Below, piece by piece: positions 3,230 through 31,596 of a stretch of DNA of 32,000 nt (its first letter is position 1; each line of letters starts with the position of its first letter). Where the stretch lies: contig NZ_CP027570.1 in assembly GCF_003010495.1 (NCBI RefSeq), positions 1,590,001 through 1,622,000 on the forward strand. The letters are read 5' to 3'. The translations under genes were made by a program, and so were the position numbers. The notes under the pieces are model-generated. The model ran no database searches. It saw nothing but the letters and a program-made list of their open reading frames with translations, and was not told the origin of the DNA. This stretch comes from Megasphaera elsdenii DSM 20460. GTDB lineage: Bacteria > Bacillota > Negativicutes > Veillonellales > Megasphaeraceae.

Positions 3230-3306
3230 GGGCGGTTAGCTCAGTTGGTTAGAGTATCTCGTTGACATCGAGGGGGTCGATGGTTCGAATCCATTATCGC
3301 CCACCA
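3230..3306 (+). tRNA. tRNA-Val (anticodon GAC), CCA encoded
   Basis: Cloverleaf folded by hand: 7-bp acceptor stem, D arm gctc/gagt, anticodon loop ttGACat, T loop ttcgaat, and a 3' acca. Confidence 0.9.
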
Positions 3307-3315
3307 TATTGTGTG

Positions 3316-3351
3316 AAAAAAGAGGCTGTCGCATTAAGACAGCCTCTTTTT
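3316..3351 (+). terminator. Intrinsic terminator of tRNA-Val copy 1
   Basis: A-run, stem agaggctgtc/gacagcctct, T-run. Confidence 0.8.
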
Positions 3352-3472
3352 GAGTTTTAAGTTTGTAGTTTTTAGTTTGCAGCAAATGGTAAAAAATTAA
3401 AGCCAGCTTCTACAAAATATAAAGCAACCTCTCAGACCGCCTGAGGCGGCCAGCTCCCCTAAAAAGGGAGCC
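3352..3472. repeat. Mosaic repeat: gttttaa/gtttgta/gttttta/gtttgca heptads, AT hairpin, AC-rich arm, then double-hairpin element (3421-3472)
   Basis: Read directly. The double-hairpin element recurs at 6078, 7749, 31740 and 31806. Confidence 0.7.
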
Positions 3473-3493
3473 TTTGCGAACTGCTGCCTGCTA

Positions 3494-3983: not shown

Positions 3984-4060
3984 GGGCGGTTAGCTCAGTT
4001 GGTTAGAGTATCTCGTTGACATCGAGGGGGTCGATGGTTCGAATCCATTACCGCCCACCA
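3984..4060 (+). tRNA. tRNA-Val (anticodon GAC), second copy
   Basis: Identical to 3230-3306 except for one acceptor-stem base (c4051 versus t3297), which changes G-U to G-C. Confidence 0.9.
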
Positions 4061-4071
4061 TATTGTGTGCG

Positions 4072-4107
4072 AAAAAGGACTTGTCGCTATGCGGCAAGTC
4101 CTTTTTT
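4072..4107 (+). terminator. Intrinsic terminator of tRNA-Val copy 2 and insertion site of the group II intron
   Basis: A5, stem ggacttgtcgc/gcggcaagtcc, T6. The intron GTGCG starts 2 nt later. Confidence 0.8.
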
Positions 4108-4109
4108 AG

Positions 4110-6007
4110 GTGCGCCCGGCATGGGCGCACTCTAATGGGTGAAAGTCCCTAAGCCGCCCGGTAGCGGGAAGGCTATAGCCAGAACCAAGGGTGTCCATCG
4201 TGAGATGGAATCTGAAGGAAGGTCGAGGCAAATCTCTGGTCTGACGAACAGAAATCACATAAGGCTAGTCATGGGGATAAGGCCGCCTAACAGGTTGAAG
4301 TCCCATAGCTACACGGAACCATGAATAGTAGATGTGGCAGACACATGGAGAGAAAGAGTGCGTTCTTACCCGGGGAGGCCTCATGGACATGATGGTGCCA
4401 TATAGATTGGACATCATGGTTGAAATAAGATTTATCATGAGGAGTCAGCCGAGGCCATAGTACCTTATGGGCTATAGACCATGAGGAAAGGGCCGAATCC
4501 TAGGAGATGTTAGTTAATGAAAGTAACCAATCATGGAATGAAAGACAGAAAACTTCATCAAGAAGGCTGTCCACAAAAAGAGGTTGCGGAACAACCGGGA
4601 TATGTGGAAGCGTCTGCCCATGCGAGGATTGCTGAACACAACGACATCATTGCAAGCTTGCCAGCGGACAGTCTGTTGAAGCAGATTTTATCACGAGACA
4701 ACTTAAATGGTGCCTATAAGAAGGTAAAGTCTAATCGAGGAACCGGCGGGGTCGACAGGATGAGTGTAGATGAACTTCTACCCTACCTGCGGGAACATCG
4801 CCTGGACCTCCTTCAGCAAATACGGAATGGGAAATATAAGCCCCAGCCAGTCCGTCGGGTTGAAATACCCAAAGAGGAAAAAGGGAAATTCCGGAAATTA
4901 GGAATCCCTACGGTCGTAGACCGCATGATACAACAGGCGATTACGCAGGTTCTTGTGCCTATCTACGAGCCACAGTTTTCAGATAGCAGTTTCGGGTTCC
5001 GTCCCAAACGGGGCGCCCACGATGCGTTGAAACAATGCCAGGCCTATGCAGATGAGGGCTATGTCTACGTCGTAGACATGGACTTGGAGAAATTTTTCGA
5101 CAATGTCTGCCAAAGCAAATTGATAGAAGTTCTGTCAAGGAGCGTAAAAGACGGCCGGGTCATCTCGCTGATACACCAATATCTCCATGCTGGTGTTATC
5201 CGGCATGGGATGTTCGAACGAAGTGAACAGGGGGTTCCCCAAGGAGGGCCATTGAGTCCGCTCTTGAGTAACATCATGCTGAATGAGCTGGATAAGGAGC
5301 TGGAACGGCGCGGACATAAATTTGTCCGCTATGCAGATGACTGCATGATACTCTGCAAAAGCAGAAGAAGTGCCGAAAGGACCTTGGAAAGCATCACTCG
5401 ATATATTGAGAAGAAATTATTTCTCAAGGTGAATCGAAATAAGACGCACGTAGCCCACATCCGCTATGTTAAATATCTGGGATATGGCTTCTACCGAAAG
5501 AATGGAAAATGCCGACTCCGGGTGCATCCGAAATCCATTACTAAGATGAAAGACCGTTTGCGGTTTATATTGAAACGAAGCAATGGAAAAGGAAACGAAG
5601 TGAGAGCCCTTCTATTGAAACGATTCATAAAGGGATGGGTGAATTACTTTAAACTAGCGAATATGAAGGAACTGCTAATTCAAATTGACAGATGGATTCG
5701 ACGCAAAATACGAACCATATACTGGAAACAATGGAAGAAGGTACGGACGAAACACCGGATGATAAGCCAATACGGCGCGCCCAAGTGGGTAGTGTTGGAA
5801 ATGGCTAACTGCCGAAAAGGTCCGTGGCGAGCAGCGGCAATGCTGAACTCAGTTCTTACGAATAAAGAAATAGCCCGCCTTGGCTACATAACCATGACGA
5901 GCTATTACAAGCAAGTATGCGAAAACTAGGAAACCGCCGTGTACCGAACGGTACGCACGGTGGTGTGAGAGGTCGGGATTTCTACTCAGAAATCCCTCCT
6001 ACTCGAT
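4110..6007 (+). mobile_element. Group II intron, probably bacterial class C (IIC), with an intron-encoded RT/maturase
   Basis: 5' GTGCG at 4110. Domain V-like helix at about 5934-5965 with a 2-nt 3' bulge and CGC at the triad position. Domain VI helix with a bulged A at about 6001. Size is about 1.9 kb, the IEP has no En domain, and the insertion is right after an intrinsic terminator. The 3' boundary is good to about +/-5 nt. Confidence 0.85.
4517..5929 (+). CDS. ltrA: Group II intron reverse transcriptase/maturase (no endonuclease domain)
   Basis: 470 aa. RT blocks are present, including GVPQGGPLSPLLSN and the catalytic YADD (RYADDCMILC). The maturase X region is rich in W/K/R. There is no C-terminal HNH. 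Confidence 0.93.
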   Translation: MKVTNHGMKDRKLHQEGCPQKEVAEQPGYVEASAHARIAEHNDIIASLPADSLLKQILSRDNLNGAYKKVKSNRGTGGVDRMSVDELLPYLREHRLDLLQQIRNGKYKPQPVRRVEIPKEEKGKFRKLGIPTVVDRMIQQAITQVLVPIYEPQFSDSSFGFRPKRGAHDALKQCQAYADEGYVYVVDMDLEKFFDNVCQSKLIEVLSRSVKDGRVISLIHQYLHAGVIRHGMFERSEQGVPQGGPLSPLLSNIMLNELDKELERRGHKFVRYADDCMILCKSRRSAERTLESITRYIEKKLFLKVNRNKTHVAHIRYVKYLGYGFYRKNGKCRLRVHPKSITKMKDRLRFILKRSNGKGNEVRALLLKRFIKGWVNYFKLANMKELLIQIDRWIRRKIRTIYWKQWKKVRTKHRMISQYGAPKWVVLEMANCRKGPWRAAAMLNSVLTNKEIARLGYITMTSYYKQVCEN

Positions 6008-6175
6008 CAGTCAGCGGCTAGCAGTTAGCGAATGGTTTTAAATTTGACGCCATCCACTAAAAACTACAAATGCTGAGAAAGCAACCTCTCAGACCGCCTT
6101 TGGCGGCCAGCTCTCCTATGAGGAGAGCCTTTCGTCAAACATCAAGTCTCAAGCCTCAAGCATCAAAGACAAAGA
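6008..6175. repeat. Mosaic repeat: cagtcag/cggctag/cagttag heptads, AT hairpin, AC-rich arm, double-hairpin element (6078-6129), tcaag-type heptads (6139-6175)
   Basis: Same module order as 3352-3472, that is, the 3' flank of the other tRNA-Val copy. Confidence 0.7.
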
Positions 6176-7568: not shown

Positions 7569-7663
7569 GAACGCCCATGTAGGGGAGGCCCATGTAGGGG
7601 ACGCCCAGAGGGCGTCCCGCCGTCCGCCGTTCGCATGTAGGGGCGCCACGTGGGGCGCCCGCC
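7565..7663 (+). repeat. Cluster of REP-like units: two half units (7565, 7579) and two full GTAGGGG-hairpin-CCCGCC units (7594-7621, 7637-7663)
   Basis: Each unit is GTAG followed by a GC palindrome (gggacgcc/ggcgtccc and gggcgcc/ggcgccc). The first GTAG contains the sstT stop codon. Confidence 0.75.
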
Positions 7664-7705
7664 ATAGATTATAATGAATAACGCAATTCGCCGTTCGCAA
7701 AAGTA

Positions 7706-7748: not shown

Positions 7749-7832
7749 AAAAGCAACCTCTCAGACCGCCTTCGGCGGCCAGCTCCCCTATAAGGGGAGC
7801 CGCTAGCCACGAGCCACGAACCACGAGCCACT
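7749..7832 (+). repeat. Double-hairpin element (7749-7801) followed by a cacgagc/cacgaac heptad array (7802-7832)
   Basis: aaaagcaacctctc + ccgcc-ttc-ggcgg + gctcccc-tataa-ggggagc, followed by the 7-nt units. Confidence 0.75.
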
Positions 7833-7866
7833 AAAAAAGCGTTGTCCGTCAGGACAACGCTTTTTT
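7833..7866. terminator. Bidirectional intrinsic terminator (A6, gcgttgtcc/ggacaacgc, T6)
   Basis: Symmetric A-run and T-run around a 9-bp stem. It lies 7 nt from the stop of the minus-strand gene at 7873. Confidence 0.8.
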
Positions 7867-21465: not shown

Positions 21466-21597
21466 CGCATTCTATATATCGACAGAAAAAGACCCGCCCT
21501 CTCCCCTGGCCGGGCCTTTTTCTTGCCCTTGAAGCTAGCCGCCGGCCGTGATTTTTTTTGTAGCCTGCGTTCTTTTTCATCGTCTGTATGCGATTTC

Positions 21598-21625
21598 GTA
21601 GGGGCCGTCTCAACGGGCGGCCCGC
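21598..21625 (+). repeat. REP-like unit GTAGGGGCCGTC-tcaacg-GGCGGCCCGC
   Basis: Same arms as the units at 25259, 29274 and 29468, with a different loop. Confidence 0.7.
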
Positions 21626-21700
21626 TCCAGAATATGTGTGATTTCCCAGACCGGACTACAGGGGCATCGTCCCCATATCCGGCAGCATCAGCCACCCGAC

Positions 21701-25203: not shown

Positions 25204-25240
25204 AAAAAAAGAGAACTGTCATAAGACAGTTCTCTTTTTT
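25204..25240. terminator. Bidirectional intrinsic terminator between convergent genes
   Basis: A7, stem gagaactgtc/gacagttctc, T6. Confidence 0.85.
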
Positions 25241-25258
25241 ACTAGCCCCTAGCCCCAG

Positions 25259-25340
25259 GCGGGCCGCCCTTTGGGACGGCCCCTACGAACCACGAACCAC
25301 GAGCCATGAGCCACGAGCCATGAGCCACGAGCCACGAGGC
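25259..25340 (-). repeat. REP-like unit (25259-25286, minus orientation) plus a heptad array (25287-25340) abutting the stop of the HAD gene
   Basis: The reverse complement reads gtggctc/atggctc heptads, then GTAGGGGCCGTC-ccaaag-GGCGGCCCGC. Confidence 0.75.
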
Positions 25341-25341
25341 C

Positions 25342-25992
25342 TCACACTCCGAAGAGAGCCCCCAGTTCTTCCCGCGTGTCGATGAGGTACGTCGGCTGGA
25401 GGGATTTCAGGAAGTCCCGGTCGCGGAAGCCCCAGGTGACGAGGGCGGCGTCGAGGCCGGCGTTGTCGGCGGTCTGTTTATCGACTTCCGAGTCGCCGAC
25501 GTAGATGGCGTCTTCTTTGGCACAGCCCAGGCGTTTCAGGGCTTCCCAGACCATGTCCGGCGCCGGCTTTTTGCGGTACATCGGCGTTTCGCCCAGAGAG
25601 AAGTCGACGAAATCCTTGAAGTATTCGTCGTGCAGTTCGGAGACGGCGCCCTGGCCCTTATTGGAGACGATGGCCATGTGGTAGCCGGCTGCCTTCAGCC
25701 GTCCCAGGACCTGGGGGATGCCGGGGTAGGGGAAGGTCGTCGTCTGGCAACGGGCGCTGTAATAGGCGATAAATTCCTTTGTCATCGTCCGCCGCAGGGC
25801 TTCCGGCGCCTGCGGAGCGGCCTTGTCGATGAAGCCGTCATAGCCAAAGCCCAGGCAGGGCCGGATGGCCTTTTGCGTCATAGAAGGCAGGCCATGGCGG
25901 GCGAAAACGTAGTTCAGGCTTTTCGTCAATTCGTCCAGCGTATCCAGGACAGTACCGTCCATATCGAAGACGATGGCTTTATATTTTTCCAT
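25342..25992 (-). CDS. HAD-superfamily hydrolase (phosphoglycolate phosphatase/PpaX-like)
   Basis: Start is placed at ATG 25992 (MEKYKAIVFDMDGTVLDT, motif I DxDGT) with RBS aaaggag. Motifs II (SNK) and IV (GDSEVD) are present. Confidence 0.88.
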   Translation of the reverse strand: MEKYKAIVFDMDGTVLDTLDELTKSLNYVFARHGLPSMTQKAIRPCLGFGYDGFIDKAAPQAPEALRRTMTKEFIAYYSARCQTTTFPYPGIPQVLGRLKAAGYHMAIVSNKGQGAVSELHDEYFKDFVDFSLGETPMYRKKPAPDMVWEALKRLGCAKEDAIYVGDSEVDKQTADNAGLDAALVTWGFRDRDFLKSLQPTYLIDTREELGALFGV

Positions 25993-26137
25993 GAAAAAGA
26001 CTCCTTTGATGGACAAAAAAACAATTTACTCCATTATTATACGAAAGCGTCAATTAATCGGCAATAGGTAGTAGCTCATGACGTCATCTTATGCTACAAT
26101 GGGGAAAGAAGTTTGATAAAATAGAGGAGAGGATGAC

Positions 26138-28401: not shown

Positions 28402-29277
28402 GTGAAGAAAATCCGTAAAGCCGTCATCCCGGCGGCCGGGTTCGGCACCCGTTTCCTGCCGGCGACGAAGGCGACGCCGAAAGAAATGCTGCCTATCGTC
28501 GATAAGCCGACAATCCAGTATATCGTCGAAGAAGCCCTGCAGAGCGGCATCGAAGAAATCCTCATCATCAGCGGCCATGCCAAACGGGCCATTGAAGACC
28601 ACTTCGATACCAATCCGGGCCTGGAACTGCACCTGGAAGAAAGCCATAAGATGGGGCTTTTGAACATGGTCCGCAGTATTTCCGAAATCAATATCCACTA
28701 TATCCGTCAGAAACACATGCGGGGCTTAGGCGATGCTATCCTTTGCGCCCAGTCCTTCATTGCTGACGAACCCTTCGCTATCCTTCTCGGCGACGACGTC
28801 GTCTACAACGAAACCAATCCGGCCCTGCGCCAGATGATCGATTTGTACAACGACCTCGACGCGACCATCCTGGGCTGCCAGGAAGTCCCCTTGGAAAAAG
28901 TATCGTCTTACGGCATCGTCCAGGGGACGCCTGTCGAAGGGCAGGGCATCCTCAAGGTCAACCGCGTCGTCGAAAAGCCGGCCATCGAAGAAGCGCCGAG
29001 CCGGACCGCCGTCCTCGGCCGTTATATCGTCACGCCGGACATCTTTGAAGTCCTGTCCCATACCCGGCCGGGCAAAGGCGGGGAAATCCAGCTCACCGAT
29101 GCCTTGCAGACCATGGCCAGCCGGGAAGCGGTCTATGCCTACTGCTTTGAAGGCAAGCGCTACGACGTCGGCGATAAACTGGGCTTTTTGAAAGCCAACG
29201 TAGAATACGCCCTGCGCCGGCCCGACCTGGCCGCCCCGTTCCGCCAGTTCCTGAAGGAAGTCGTTCGTGGTTCGTAG
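28402..29277 (+). CDS. galU: UTP--glucose-1-phosphate uridylyltransferase
   Basis: GTG start with RBS aaggag. Motifs are AVIPAAGFGTRFLPATKATPKEMLP and VEKP. The last codons (VVRGS-stop) are made of heptad and REP sequence. Confidence 0.92.
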   Translation: MKKIRKAVIPAAGFGTRFLPATKATPKEMLPIVDKPTIQYIVEEALQSGIEEILIISGHAKRAIEDHFDTNPGLELHLEESHKMGLLNMVRSISEINIHYIRQKHMRGLGDAILCAQSFIADEPFAILLGDDVVYNETNPALRQMIDLYNDLDATILGCQEVPLEKVSSYGIVQGTPVEGQGILKVNRVVEKPAIEEAPSRTAVLGRYIVTPDIFEVLSHTRPGKGGEIQLTDALQTMASREAVYAYCFEGKRYDVGDKLGFLKANVEYALRRPDLAAPFRQFLKEVVRGS

Positions 29278-29585
29278 GGGCCGTCCTGGAAGGCGGCCCG
29301 CGTGAATCCTGTGTAAAACGTTATAGCTTGTAGTGGGTGGCTCGTGGTTTGTGGCTTGTGTTCGTGGCTCGTGCTCGTGGCTCGTGTTCGTGGCTCGTGG
29401 TTCGTGGCTCGTGTTCGTGGCTCGTGGCTCGTGGTTCGTGGTTCGTGGCTCGTGTGGCTCGCGGCTCGTAGGGGCCGTCCTGGAAGGCGGCCCGCGTGAA
29501 TCCTGTGTAAAACGTTATAGCTTGTAGTGGGTGGCTAAAAATTTAAAGCCATCCGCTAGCCACTAGCCACTAACTGCTAACCACT
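29261..29585 (+). repeat. Composite: heptads, 69-bp unit (REP-like hairpin plus spacer, 29274-29342), 125-bp array of 6/7-nt cgtggct/cgtggtt/cgtgtt/cgtgct units (29343-29467), identical 69-bp unit (29468-29536), AT hairpin, ctagcca/ctaactg heptads
   Basis: The two 69-bp copies are identical base for base by my alignment. Array units were parsed by hand. Confidence 0.85.
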
Positions 29586-29637
29586 AAAAAAGGGGCTGTC
29601 GCACGAAGGTTTTTGCCATCATGCGAGGGCCCTTTTT
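29586..29637 (+). terminator. Chimeric terminator-like element (left half ggggctgtcgca, right half atcatgcgagggccc, T-run)
   Basis: The left arm matches the 15642 terminator and the right arm matches the 7706 terminator. Pairing between the two halves is only partial. Confidence 0.45.
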
Positions 29638-29644
29638 CTTAAAT

Positions 29645-29737
29645 GTTTGAGGTTTGATGTATGACGTTTGAGGCGATGGCTTTTAAATTTTGTCCCCTCC
29701 ACATCAAACTTTCAACTTCAAACTTCAAACTCAAAAA
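29645..29737. repeat. Mosaic repeat: gtttgag/gtttgat/gtatgac heptads, AT hairpin centre (gatggcttttaaatttt), catcaaa/cttcaaa heptads
   Basis: Inverted GT-rich and AC-rich arms read directly. Confidence 0.75.
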
Positions 29738-29769
29738 GGGCTTGTCGTCATGCGACAAGCCCTTTTTTT
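29733..29769. terminator. Bidirectional-type intrinsic terminator (A5, gggcttgtcg/cgacaagccc, T7)
   Basis: Perfect 10-bp stem with flanking A-run and T-run. Confidence 0.8.
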
Positions 29770-29799: not shown

Positions 29800-29828
29800 T
29801 TGATTGAATGAAAAGGCCATGCTATAAT
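29800..29828 (+). promoter_or_regulatory. Promoter of the rseC-like gene (TTGATT-17-TGcTATAAT)
   Basis: -35 hexamer, 17-nt spacer and an extended -10. Confidence 0.6.
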
Positions 29829-30403: not shown

Positions 30404-31318
30404 TTAGATTCCCAGACGCATATTATGTTTCTGGAAATCAGCATACAGCTTTTCATAGTCATCCGGTGACATGTAGTTGCAATGGCTATGAATGCGTACG
30501 GTGTTGTAAAAGGTATTGATGTATTCAAACACCAACAAGTACGCTTGCTGATAATTTTGAATCTTGAAGCGATTGAGCCATTCCCGTTTAATCAGGGAGT
30601 GGAAGGATTCGATGCAGGCATTGTCCCATGGATAGCCTTTCTTCGAATAGCTGCGGCGCATTTGGGATGTCTCCCGAATATATGCCTGCGAAACATACTG
30701 GCAGCCACGGTCCGAATGGATAACCAACAGCTGTCCGGGTTTCCGGCATTGTTTGGCTTCCTGCAGCATCTTGACGATGCCGGCGACGTCCAGATTACGG
30801 GCCAGATTCCAGGCGATGATTTTCCTGGAGAACAAATCCATAATGCTTTCCAAATAGACGAAACCTTCAGCTGTCCAGATATAGGTGATGTCGCTGCACC
30901 ATACTTGATCCGGTTCTTCAGGATTGAAGCATTCCTGAAGGATATTCACCAGCGCCACGTCAAAGTCACTGTTACGGGTCGTTACGGTGTAATGCTTTAC
31001 CCAGCAGGCCTGAATGCCCATTTGCCGCATGTATACGCCAACTGTGCGTTCAGAGATACTGTCCCCGTTCTGCTGCATAACTTGGGCAATCTTCGGGGCT
31101 CCGTAAATCTGCTTGGAATCGTCGTAGATAGTTTGAATCTTTTTCTTCATCTCCTTGCGGTGCTGGGCCTGTTTCGATGGTTTGCGCGCCGCCCAGTCAT
31201 AATATCCTGAAGAAGAAACGTCGAGTTCAGAAAGCACTCCGGACACCGAAAAACGACGTTCTGCCTGATGGGCATTTTCGGCTTCTTCCTGGACACTGCG
31301 ATAGATGGCAATGGTCAT
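30404..31318 (-). CDS. IS3-family transposase OrfB (DDE integrase core), probably expressed as an OrfAB fusion
   Basis: The DDE triad contexts are VWCSDITYI, VIHSDRGCQYVS and YPWDNACIESFH. The frame is open from the A7G site. Confidence 0.9.
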   Translation of the reverse strand: MTIAIYRSVQEEAENAHQAERRFSVSGVLSELDVSSSGYYDWAARKPSKQAQHRKEMKKKIQTIYDDSKQIYGAPKIAQVMQQNGDSISERTVGVYMRQMGIQACWVKHYTVTTRNSDFDVALVNILQECFNPEEPDQVWCSDITYIWTAEGFVYLESIMDLFSRKIIAWNLARNLDVAGIVKMLQEAKQCRKPGQLLVIHSDRGCQYVSQAYIRETSQMRRSYSKKGYPWDNACIESFHSLIKREWLNRFKIQNYQQAYLLVFEYINTFYNTVRIHSHCNYMSPDDYEKLYADFQKHNMRLGI

Positions 31319-31596
31319 TTGTCCAGAATGCTGATAGCTTTTTTTAGGACATTCAACGCATCCTTCGCATCCCGCAGTTCACGCTGCAGACGGGCGATTT
31401 CCTTAGCTTCATCCGAAGCATAGTTGCCGGAACCACGATAAGGCATTTCGCCATTGTCCTTCAGCTGCTTTTGCCAACGGGACAAGGTTTGTGGAGCAAT
31501 ACCTAGATTCGTAGCACAGCCAACCAAGCCGAGTTCCCGATGTTCATGATAATATTTAACTGCGTTGATTTTGAATTCTTTGTTGAATTTTGCCAT
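31315..31596 (-). CDS. IS3-family transposase OrfA (HTH)
   Basis: 93 aa with an HTH (GCATNLGIAPQTLSRWQKQ) and a leucine-zipper-like C-terminus. Confidence 0.9.
   Translation of the reverse strand: MAKFNKEFKINAVKYYHEHRELGLVGCATNLGIAPQTLSRWQKQLKDNGEMPYRGSGNYASDEAKEIARLQRELRDAKDALNVLKKAISILDK
31338..31346 (-). other. Programmed -1 ribosomal frameshift site (A AAA AAA G on the minus strand)
   Basis: The minus strand reads cta aaa aaa gct in the orfA frame. The -1 frame continues without a stop into orfB. Confidence 0.75.

Follow-up and report, generated by a model that had tools for sequence, protein, structure and literature searches.

A probable head-to-tail duplication of a GTAG-tagged repetitive extragenic palindrome, with a heptanucleotide repeat array, downstream of galU in Megasphaera elsdenii

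A duplicated hairpin unit and a heptamer array behind galU

We analyzed a block of repeats that lies directly behind galU in a 32,000-nucleotide stretch of the Megasphaera elsdenii DSM 20460 genome (contig NZ_CP027570.1, positions 1,590,001 to 1,622,000), hereafter the window, whose coordinates are used throughout. In the list of open reading frames (ORFs), galU occupies 28402-29277 on the plus strand and encodes a UTP-glucose-1-phosphate uridylyltransferase of 291 aa; the Pfam domain NTP_transferase was found on the identical protein in public contigs. Behind it, two 69-bp units (29274-29342 and 29468-29536) flank an array of short repeats, and rseC follows farther downstream. An initial annotation of this DNA had described the two units as identical, each composed of a GTAGGGG hairpin plus a spacer, and the block as fused to the galU stop codon, all of which was borne out. 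The units agree base for base, and the exact match even reaches 71 bp (29272-29342 = 29466-29536), while the 83 nt starting at 29260 and 29454 align with 95% identity.

Each unit consists of a 26-nt element, which we assign below to the repetitive extragenic palindromes (REPs), and a 43-nt tail. The REP comprises an unpaired GTAG and an 8-bp GC-rich stem, GGGCCGTC-CTGGAA-GGCGGCCC, and folds as predicted. The TAG within the first GTAGGGG is the galU stop codon (29275-29277), the stem begins at the base right after it, and the final five galU codons are themselves made up of two heptamer-like units. The whole REP-array-REP block is enclosed by inverted heptamer arms and then followed by an intrinsic terminator (Table 1). 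In the centroid fold of the region, the terminator, the 29527-29556 hairpin and the hairpins of both REPs are all preserved. Modules with the loop AAATTTAAA that resemble the 29527-29556 hairpin were also seen at ~100, ~3390, ~6040 and 29680.

Table 1. Positions of the galU-associated repeats and of the other REP sites in the window
Feature	Position	Strand	Basis and remarks
Two heptamers, GTCGTTC GTGGTTC	29260..29273	+	Encode the last GalU residues, VVRGS; in register into the REP head
REP copy 1	29274..29299	+	GTAG tag; 8-bp stem GGGCCGTC/GGCGGCCC with one T.G wobble; loop CTGGAA; fold, family alignment, 41-bit covariance-model match
Tail of unit 1, 43 nt, locus-specific	29300..29342	+	3' end is heptamer-like GTGGGTGGCT
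Heptanucleotide variable number tandem repeat (VNTR), 18 units	29343..29467	+	Tandem Repeats Finder (TRF), unit parse
REP copy 2, same as copy 1	29468..29493	+	Sequence comparison, covariance model
Tail of unit 2, same as tail 1	29494..29536	+	Sequence comparison
Hairpin GTGGGTGGCT-AAAAATTTAA-AGCCATCCGC	29527..29556	+	Full pairing needs G.U, hence plus strand only; RNA centroid structure
Reverse-orientation heptamers TAGCCAC TAGCCAC TAACTGC TAACCAC	29557..29587	+	Inverted partner of the GTGGYTC units; TRF; long-range pairing in the minimum-free-energy fold
Terminator T1, first after galU	29586..29640	+	Scan match 29608-29631, then T-run; stable centroid hairpin
Second mosaic module: GTTTGAG-type heptamers, AAATTT loop, CTCAAAC-type heptamers, terminator T2	29645..29769	+	Present or absent among strains
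Array (GTGGCTC/ATGGCTC/GTGGTTC) running in register into a GTAG REP	25256..25338 (REP 25256-25289)	-	Downstream of minus-strand gene 25342-26016; 46 bits
Dispersed REP copy, GTAGGGGCCGTC-TCAACG-GGCGGCCC	21595..21628	+	Hamming-distance scan, covariance model
Two REPs with different compensated stems	7571..7665 (REPs 7591-7623, 7634-7665)	+	A 15-nt tandem copy of an incomplete REP head stands in front; TRF, fold, covariance model

The two parts of the unit differ in their distribution. No further copy of the 69-mer tail was found at up to 14 mismatches in a Hamming-distance scan of ~90 kb of Megasphaera DNA, and a 26-nt piece of the tail matched galU loci only (12 of 12 stretches in a metagenome collection); its first ~20 nt are similar to the tails of some other REPs, e.g., GCCGCGAATCCTGTGGATAACG in contig L030 (L numbers denote the public contigs and loci that we compared). 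Since the 43-nt tail is specific to the galU locus, the 69-mer is not the unit of a window-wide system. The block had been regarded as the clearest signature of a repeat system that pervades the window, and it is indeed linked to the pervading repeats, but just the 26-nt REP and the heptamers recur, whereas the 69-mer is not dispersed.

The 125-bp segment between the units parses into 18 units of 6, 7 or 9 nt, which agrees with the approximately 18 units of 6/7 nt first noted: CGTGGCT, CGTGGTT, CGTGTT and CGTGCT, with two TGTG variants, one 9-mer and one CGCGGCT. TRF reported a period of 7 with 19.3 copies (score 150). Because the longer periods of 13 (score 167) and 27 (score 190) outscore it, the higher-order alternation is real; CGTGGCT does stand at every second unit, as had been claimed, in units 2-12, but the pattern is then lost. 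The array has no G-quadruplex potential, and all 13 TRF period-7 arrays of the window fall in its non-coding 13.7%.

The initial annotation recognized no tandem-repeat class in this array. It is, however, a head-to-tail iteration of 7 nt by TRF, and its copy number varies by whole units among alleles on identical flanks (see below); these are the properties of a heptanucleotide simple-sequence repeat (SSR) or VNTR, a known and abundant class. Heptanucleotide SSRs are a widespread class of long SSRs (PMC4679880, PMC4692102), and heptamers reportedly outnumber every other class of long SSR in prokaryotes (Mrazek 2007 as cited in PMC4679880); their origin is conjectural. Like the cyanobacterial STRR sequences, GGGNATC of Xanthomonas and Nostoc (PMC4692102) and TAACTGA of Beggiatoaceae (PMC4679880), the galU array is made of intergenic tandem 7-nt units; such arrays often lie no more than tens of bases from a stop or start codon and vary in copy number, as this one does, and the mechanism proposed for them, slippage, is the one that we propose here. 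The galU array differs from them in its lack of G-quadruplex potential, and the Megasphaera arrays differ in their unit, GTGGYTC/GTGGYTA, in being fused in register to REP hairpins and in commonly forming inverted pairs around terminators.

GTAG-tagged hairpins and heptamer arrays in Megasphaera

A covariance model of the hairpin placed 6 REP copies at 4 intergenic sites in the window, and further copies were found in loci of three other Megasphaera species-level genomes, all of them extragenic. We aligned 17 Megasphaera copies. In 17 of 17, GTAG was invariant and outside the stem, which has 8 bp and a loop of 4-7 nt; the hairpins fold both as DNA and as RNA, with DNA folds of -8 to -12 kcal/mol. 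Over the 17 REPs, 97% of stem cells were paired, compared to 44-58% in slid controls. Both-side changes occurred at 3 of the 8 stem pairs (13 cells; CG, GC, UA, AU), and the observed covariation score was reached by none of 500 shuffles. One stem pair is either C-G or T.G, the latter in 8 of the 17 REPs and with T always on the 5' arm, which points to the GTAG strand as the one that counts, as single-stranded DNA (ssDNA) or RNA. When the covariance model was applied to ~0.8 Mb of DNA from outside Megasphaera, no match exceeded 23 bits; the model's Megasphaera matches are mostly the sequences it was trained on. By our inspection of the adjacent ORFs, ~18 of 22 Megasphaera REPs stand behind a gene and in sense orientation.

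Although the hairpin had at first been taken to belong to no known class, it fits the GTAG-tagged REPs as these are defined from sequence and structure (Di Nocera et al. 2013, PMC3733652; also Nunvar et al. 2010, PMC2817692). It shares with them a short GC-rich palindrome (26-33 nt), an invariant unpaired GTAG at the 5' foot, complementary stem subfamilies with compensated changes and G.T pairs, multiple extragenic copies that lie mostly downstream of ORFs, and clusters of units reiterated in tandem with flanking DNA. Clusters of the last kind have been described, head-to-tail dimers being rare (PMC3733652); unlike most GTAG-tagged REP families, the Megasphaera elements form such dimers here and at L074. 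They depart from the described families also in their host, a Negativicute (Bacillota), in heads that are commonly preceded by tag-like heptamer arrays, and in a cognate REP-associated tyrosine transposase (RAYT) that is only putative. A literature search combining Megasphaera or Negativicutes with REPs, RAYT, intergenic repeats or such arrays returned no description, although such an absence does not prove novelty. The component classes are known; what would be new is that GTAG-tagged REPs form a family in this lineage and that heptamer tag arrays are fused to REP heads.

We also compared the locus with composite REP elements. It resembles the bacterial interspersed mosaic elements (BIMEs) of E. 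coli in being an intergenic mosaic of reusable short modules (REPs, linkers) between a stop codon and a terminator, and in a number of tandem units that varies by strain. BIMEs, however, combine alternating REP orientation with fixed, conserved linkers, whereas the galU locus has direct REPs separated by the tail and the heptamer array, a hypervariable microsatellite linker. With REPINs and REPtrons (PMC3116915, PMC8266576) it has in common GTAG-headed hairpins that could be ssDNA substrates for a Y1 HUH enzyme, with a CT adjacent; REPINs are inverted doublets, in contrast to the direct doublet at galU. In the compared sequences we saw no evidence for transposition of the galU unit to new sites.

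The array and the REP are closely related in sequence, the array unit TTCGTGG differing from the REP 5' end TTCGTAG by one base. Arrays run in register into REP heads at 25286 (minus strand), 29274 and 29468 in the window, and at L030:398, L074:6708, L094:5883, L130:2125 and L130:7686 in other contigs; by our count, about half of the Megasphaera GTGGYTC arrays examined have a junction of this kind. In L030 the array forms a gradient, TAGTGGC, TAGGGGC, TAGGGGT, TAGTGGT, TCGTGGT, TCGTGGC, before the TCGTAGGGGCC of the REP, and its TAGGGGC unit is a literal REP head.

Iteration of the REP head extends beyond 7-nt units. Partial heads (GTAG plus the first stem bases) are repeated directly upstream of complete REPs with periods of 15 nt (window 7571-7607), 14 nt (L030 ~4915-4945) and 10 nt (GTAGGGGCTC; L010 and L144, upstream of the second unit). 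REP and heptamer units also provide stop codons elsewhere: a REP tag contributes the TAG that closes the minus-strand gene at ~6111 of L094, and the gene at ~2070 of L130, like several galU alleles (L142, L145, L147), ends in a heptamer TAG (GATTAGG, GGCTAGT). The Megasphaera repeats fill intergenic DNA and, as at galU, even supply the end of a gene.

A wider scan of genome contigs for (GTGGYTC)3 gave at least 120 stretches. Among the matches listed, to which the following statements refer, were seven Megasphaera loci and more than 100 loci from unrelated genomes of many other phyla, e.g., Acidobacteriota, Amphritea, rumen Kiritimatiellae, Flavobacteriia and Planctomycetota. The arrays outside Megasphaera look intergenic and stand beside heptamer arrays of other sequence. 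REP-like hairpins were near the 121 non-Megasphaera arrays at Amphritea loci only (L042, L071, L093), and none of the 121 had an in-register array-hairpin junction. We therefore dropped the idea that an array beside a GTAG hairpin is a general link across phyla; on this evidence, the array-REP fusion is a Megasphaera feature. A layout of array, short spacer and reverse-complement array was very frequent in the other phyla (L021-L140, e.g., L065 4480-4700, L057, L048, L115 and L116).

Alleles of the galU locus and their origin

To assess variation at the locus, we compared at least 25 public contigs that carry it, most of them from short-read metagenome assemblies. The window is identical to HE576794.1 (~1.324-1.356 Mb) over 6.6 kb and to the complete genome CP198969.1 over 5.1 kb, and the 591-nt galU-rseC spacer is identical in both of these records and in metagenome contigs L001 and L149. 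Repeats of this type are prone to assembly error, but since two complete genomes share an identical allele with two metagenome contigs of independent origin, an assembly artefact is ruled out as the source of the duplication.

The alleles fall into three classes. In class A (11 contigs), galU is followed by two heptamers and one unit. In class B (L142, L145 and L147), galU is followed by a 4-9-unit array and one unit, and its stop comes from a GGCTAGT or GGTTAGG heptamer; L018 is akin to this class, but its hairpin differs. Class C has unit, array and unit, with arrays of 6, 11, ~12, ~13, 18, 19 or 22 units, and the length differences within it parse into whole 6- or 7-nt units. The single-unit allele of L019 is exactly one 194-nt period shorter than the window. 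The two units are not identical in every strain, there being one change in the second copy in L003, L009 and L151. Length polymorphism across strains, a point on which the initial annotation had staked its reading, is therefore extensive, with arrays of 6-22 units and spacers of 251-619 nt.

The flanks allow the pace of this variation to be judged. L001 and L020 (18 units), L013 (11 units), L017 (22 units) and L019 (single unit) show 0/1273 flank differences among them, while the other contigs have 8-38 flank differences from this group. Because different alleles stand on identical flanks, turnover at the galU locus is much faster than point substitution. Conversely, the same 276-nt, 18-unit allele occurs on flanks with 28/1273 differences (L001 vs. 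L149), which suggests recombination. The galU-rseC spacer is thus a very fast-evolving marker that could aid the tracking of M. elsdenii strains in rumen and gut, and one that calls for caution in short-read assembly and annotation of this species.

Other parts of the spacer vary as well. The module of inverted GTTTGAG/CTCAAAC heptamers and terminator T2 (29641-29769) is present in some strains only, L012 resembles a recombinant of terminators T1 and T2, and a 48-aa ORF annotated across the T2 module in some public records is probably spurious. L008 and L015 (strain CP027569.1) carry at ~4050-4170, equivalent to window ~29790, an insertion of ~108 nt with a different REP, GTAGGGGCGCCCACGTGGGGCGACC. 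It lies just upstream of the rseC promoter and is flanked by a 13-bp direct repeat, ACTGCACGAAAAT / ACTACACGAAAAT, whose copies hold both variants of an inter-strain G/A polymorphism.

The galU locus is an unusual local form of known bacterial repeat classes, governed by ordinary repeat dynamics, and not a new genetic system. We consider it probable that it represents a GTAG-tagged REP duplicated head to tail, together with a heptanucleotide VNTR, from a Megasphaera-specific family and situated in the 3' untranslated region (3' UTR) of galU. The second copy would have arisen when a segment of heptamers, REP and tail was duplicated in tandem; the tail has a heptamer-like end, GTGGCT, and its similarity to the heptamers that precede the REP would have provided the microhomology. 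Heptamers caught between the copies may then have grown and shrunk through slipped-strand mispairing, which a polymerase that stalls at the hairpin foot could have favored, and recombination or slippage between the 71-bp direct repeats would delete one 194-bp period and so yield the single-unit allele. A recent duplication or an active copy-and-expand mechanism had been proposed at the outset; duplication followed by expansion fits the strain data, but these data do not show an active mechanism other than slippage and recombination.

Since the block is situated between the stop codon and the first terminator, it is presumably transcribed with galU as part of the mRNA. The effect is probably modest: a 3'-UTR hairpin could slow 3'-5' decay and, by analogy with E. 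coli REPs, we conjecture that a hairpin right after the stop could disturb translation termination. Liang, Rudd and Deutscher reportedly observed in 2015 that E. coli REPs within ~15 nt of the stop stall terminating ribosomes and reduce expression. The duplication itself is dispensable, because strains with an identical GalU protein lack it.

Several points weigh against this reading. Membership of the GTAG-tagged REP superfamily entails dispersed extragenic copies, typically more than 100 per genome, and our REP and array counts cover the 32-kb window and sampled Megasphaera loci; the search for a REP-associated transposase, likewise, was limited to ~100 kb of non-redundant sequence, and its negative outcome is uninformative. 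The alleles used for comparison stem mostly from metagenomes assembled from short reads, where repeats can be given a wrong length, and recombination or transfer blurs the genealogy, as L001 and L149 illustrate. The order of duplication before expansion is a reconstruction from the allele series. Because class B arrays share with those of class C a common 3' signature, CGTGTGGCT CGCGGCTC, an ancestral array into which the unit was copied would be an equally possible order of events. Finally, the 3'-UTR position and any effect at the RNA level are deduced from the sequence.

Slippage and recombination are not the only conceivable source of such a structure. The in-register array-REP fusion suggests a testable origin of heptanucleotide microsatellites, by hairpin-promoted slippage or by the action of an HUH enzyme. 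In the latter case, RAYT/TnpA_REP or another HUH nuclease would read the GTAG hairpin, cut at the CT of GTGGCTC and, through strand transfer, produce both the arrays and the REP duplication. The GTAG tag guides TnpA_REP, and enzymes of this type cut CT or CA 5' or 3' of the hairpin (PMC8266576); each GTGGCTC unit includes a CT dinucleotide, and some families tolerate GTGG as a variant of the tag (PMC3733652, PMC8266576). The arrays are specific to the tag side of the REPs, with which they keep register, partial REP heads are iterated at several periods, and the strand-specific T.G wobble would suit a single-strand substrate. Set against this, GTGGTTC units contain no CT, about half of the arrays lack an adjoining REP, the heptamer arrays of other phyla mostly lack a neighboring GTAG hairpin among the matches listed, and whole-unit indels are explained by slippage alone. 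A tblastn search with E. coli RayT and IS200 TnpA returned no RAYT or IS200-like gene from 280 kb of Megasphaera DNA, ~100 kb of it non-redundant, which is only ~4% of a genome and leaves the result uninformative. We regard an enzyme-driven origin as rather unlikely. Somewhat less probable still is the narrower proposition that the heptamer arrays are iterated REP tags (TTCGTGG ~ TTCGTAG), either made by a RAYT-like HUH enzyme or serving it as a ladder for cleavage and binding. If true, it would tie heptanucleotide microsatellites to REP/RAYT biology and extend REP/RAYT systems to Bacillota.

A selected role as a cis-acting RNA, in which the block would regulate galU or rseC, either from a structured 3' UTR or as a small RNA (sRNA) derived from the 3' end, we judge quite improbable. 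The REPs are mostly in sense orientation with a wobble compatible with G.U, the 29527-29556 hairpin needs G.U for full pairing, and the fold of the region surpasses that of shuffled controls (z = -2.9); a value of this size, however, is expected for any inverted-repeat sequence. An Rfam search over the region found nothing at gathering thresholds, and its permissive mode returned sub-threshold sRNA/miRNA noise on the terminators. Moreover, presence and length vary among strains with identical GalU, RseC and flanks, which argues against a conserved function of the duplication and array.

Phase variation, in which the heptamer number would alter the GalU C-terminus, the stop codon or rseC expression, is very unlikely. 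The length of the unit is not divisible by three, the arrays reach the last galU codons, and three different repeat units supply the stop among the alleles. Yet the TAG precedes the variable part of the array in every allele, leaving GalU at 290 or 291 aa, and the array lies upstream of two terminators and ~330 nt upstream of, rather than within, the promoter-like site of rseC (29800-29828). We therefore rejected a phase-variable contingency locus.

A CRISPR-like array, which the initial annotation had also dismissed, can, together with assembly error, be practically discounted: CRISPR arrays have at least three regularly spaced 24-48-bp repeats, unique spacers of similar length and usually nearby cas genes, whereas the superficially repeat-spacer-repeat layout of the 69-mers offers two repeats of 69-71 bp around a spacer that is itself a microsatellite, with no cas genes in the Pfam annotation of matching public contigs over ~3 kb to either side of galU and rseC. 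MITEs (miniature inverted-repeat transposable elements) have terminal inverted repeats and a flanking target-site duplication; the 194-bp presence/absence block is one tandem period without terminal inverted repeats, and this class was rejected as well.

Neighboring repeats and genes

The genome's intrinsic terminators themselves resemble a repeat family, with a CTGTC...GACAG stem core between A- and T-tracts. Sites of this family lie at 150-182, 3316-3350, 7833-7866, 25205-25240, 29586-29640 and 29733-29769 in the window, and others in L033, L074, L130 and L137. Inverted heptamer arrays commonly flank them, which places each terminator at the apex of an extended imperfect palindrome.

A second dispersed module, AACCTCTCAG followed by a hairpin and CAGCTCCCCT-loop-AGGGGAGCC, occurs on the plus strand at 3426-3475, 6083-6130, 7755-7802 and 31748-~31800. 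Its 4 plus-strand occurrences compare with 0.04 expected, and Rfam contains no match to it. Where the window has ACCGCC...GGCGGC as the first hairpin of this module, other Megasphaera species have TCAGC...GCTGA; the exchange is compensatory and so suggests that the element is structured.

Downstream of rseC, an IS3-family insertion element occupies 30404-31596 on the minus strand, with a 304-aa rve transposase and a 93-aa HTH_Tnp_1 ORF. It is present in DSM 20460-type records and absent at that position in most contigs of other strains, and the spacer from rseC to the next gene varies between ~106 and 336 nt. At the other end of the window are two tRNA-Val(GAC) genes (3230-3306 and 3984-4060) and a group II intron (4194-~6010; Rfam domains D1-D4, with a 470-aa ORF at 4517-5929), which starts ~130 nt after the second of them.

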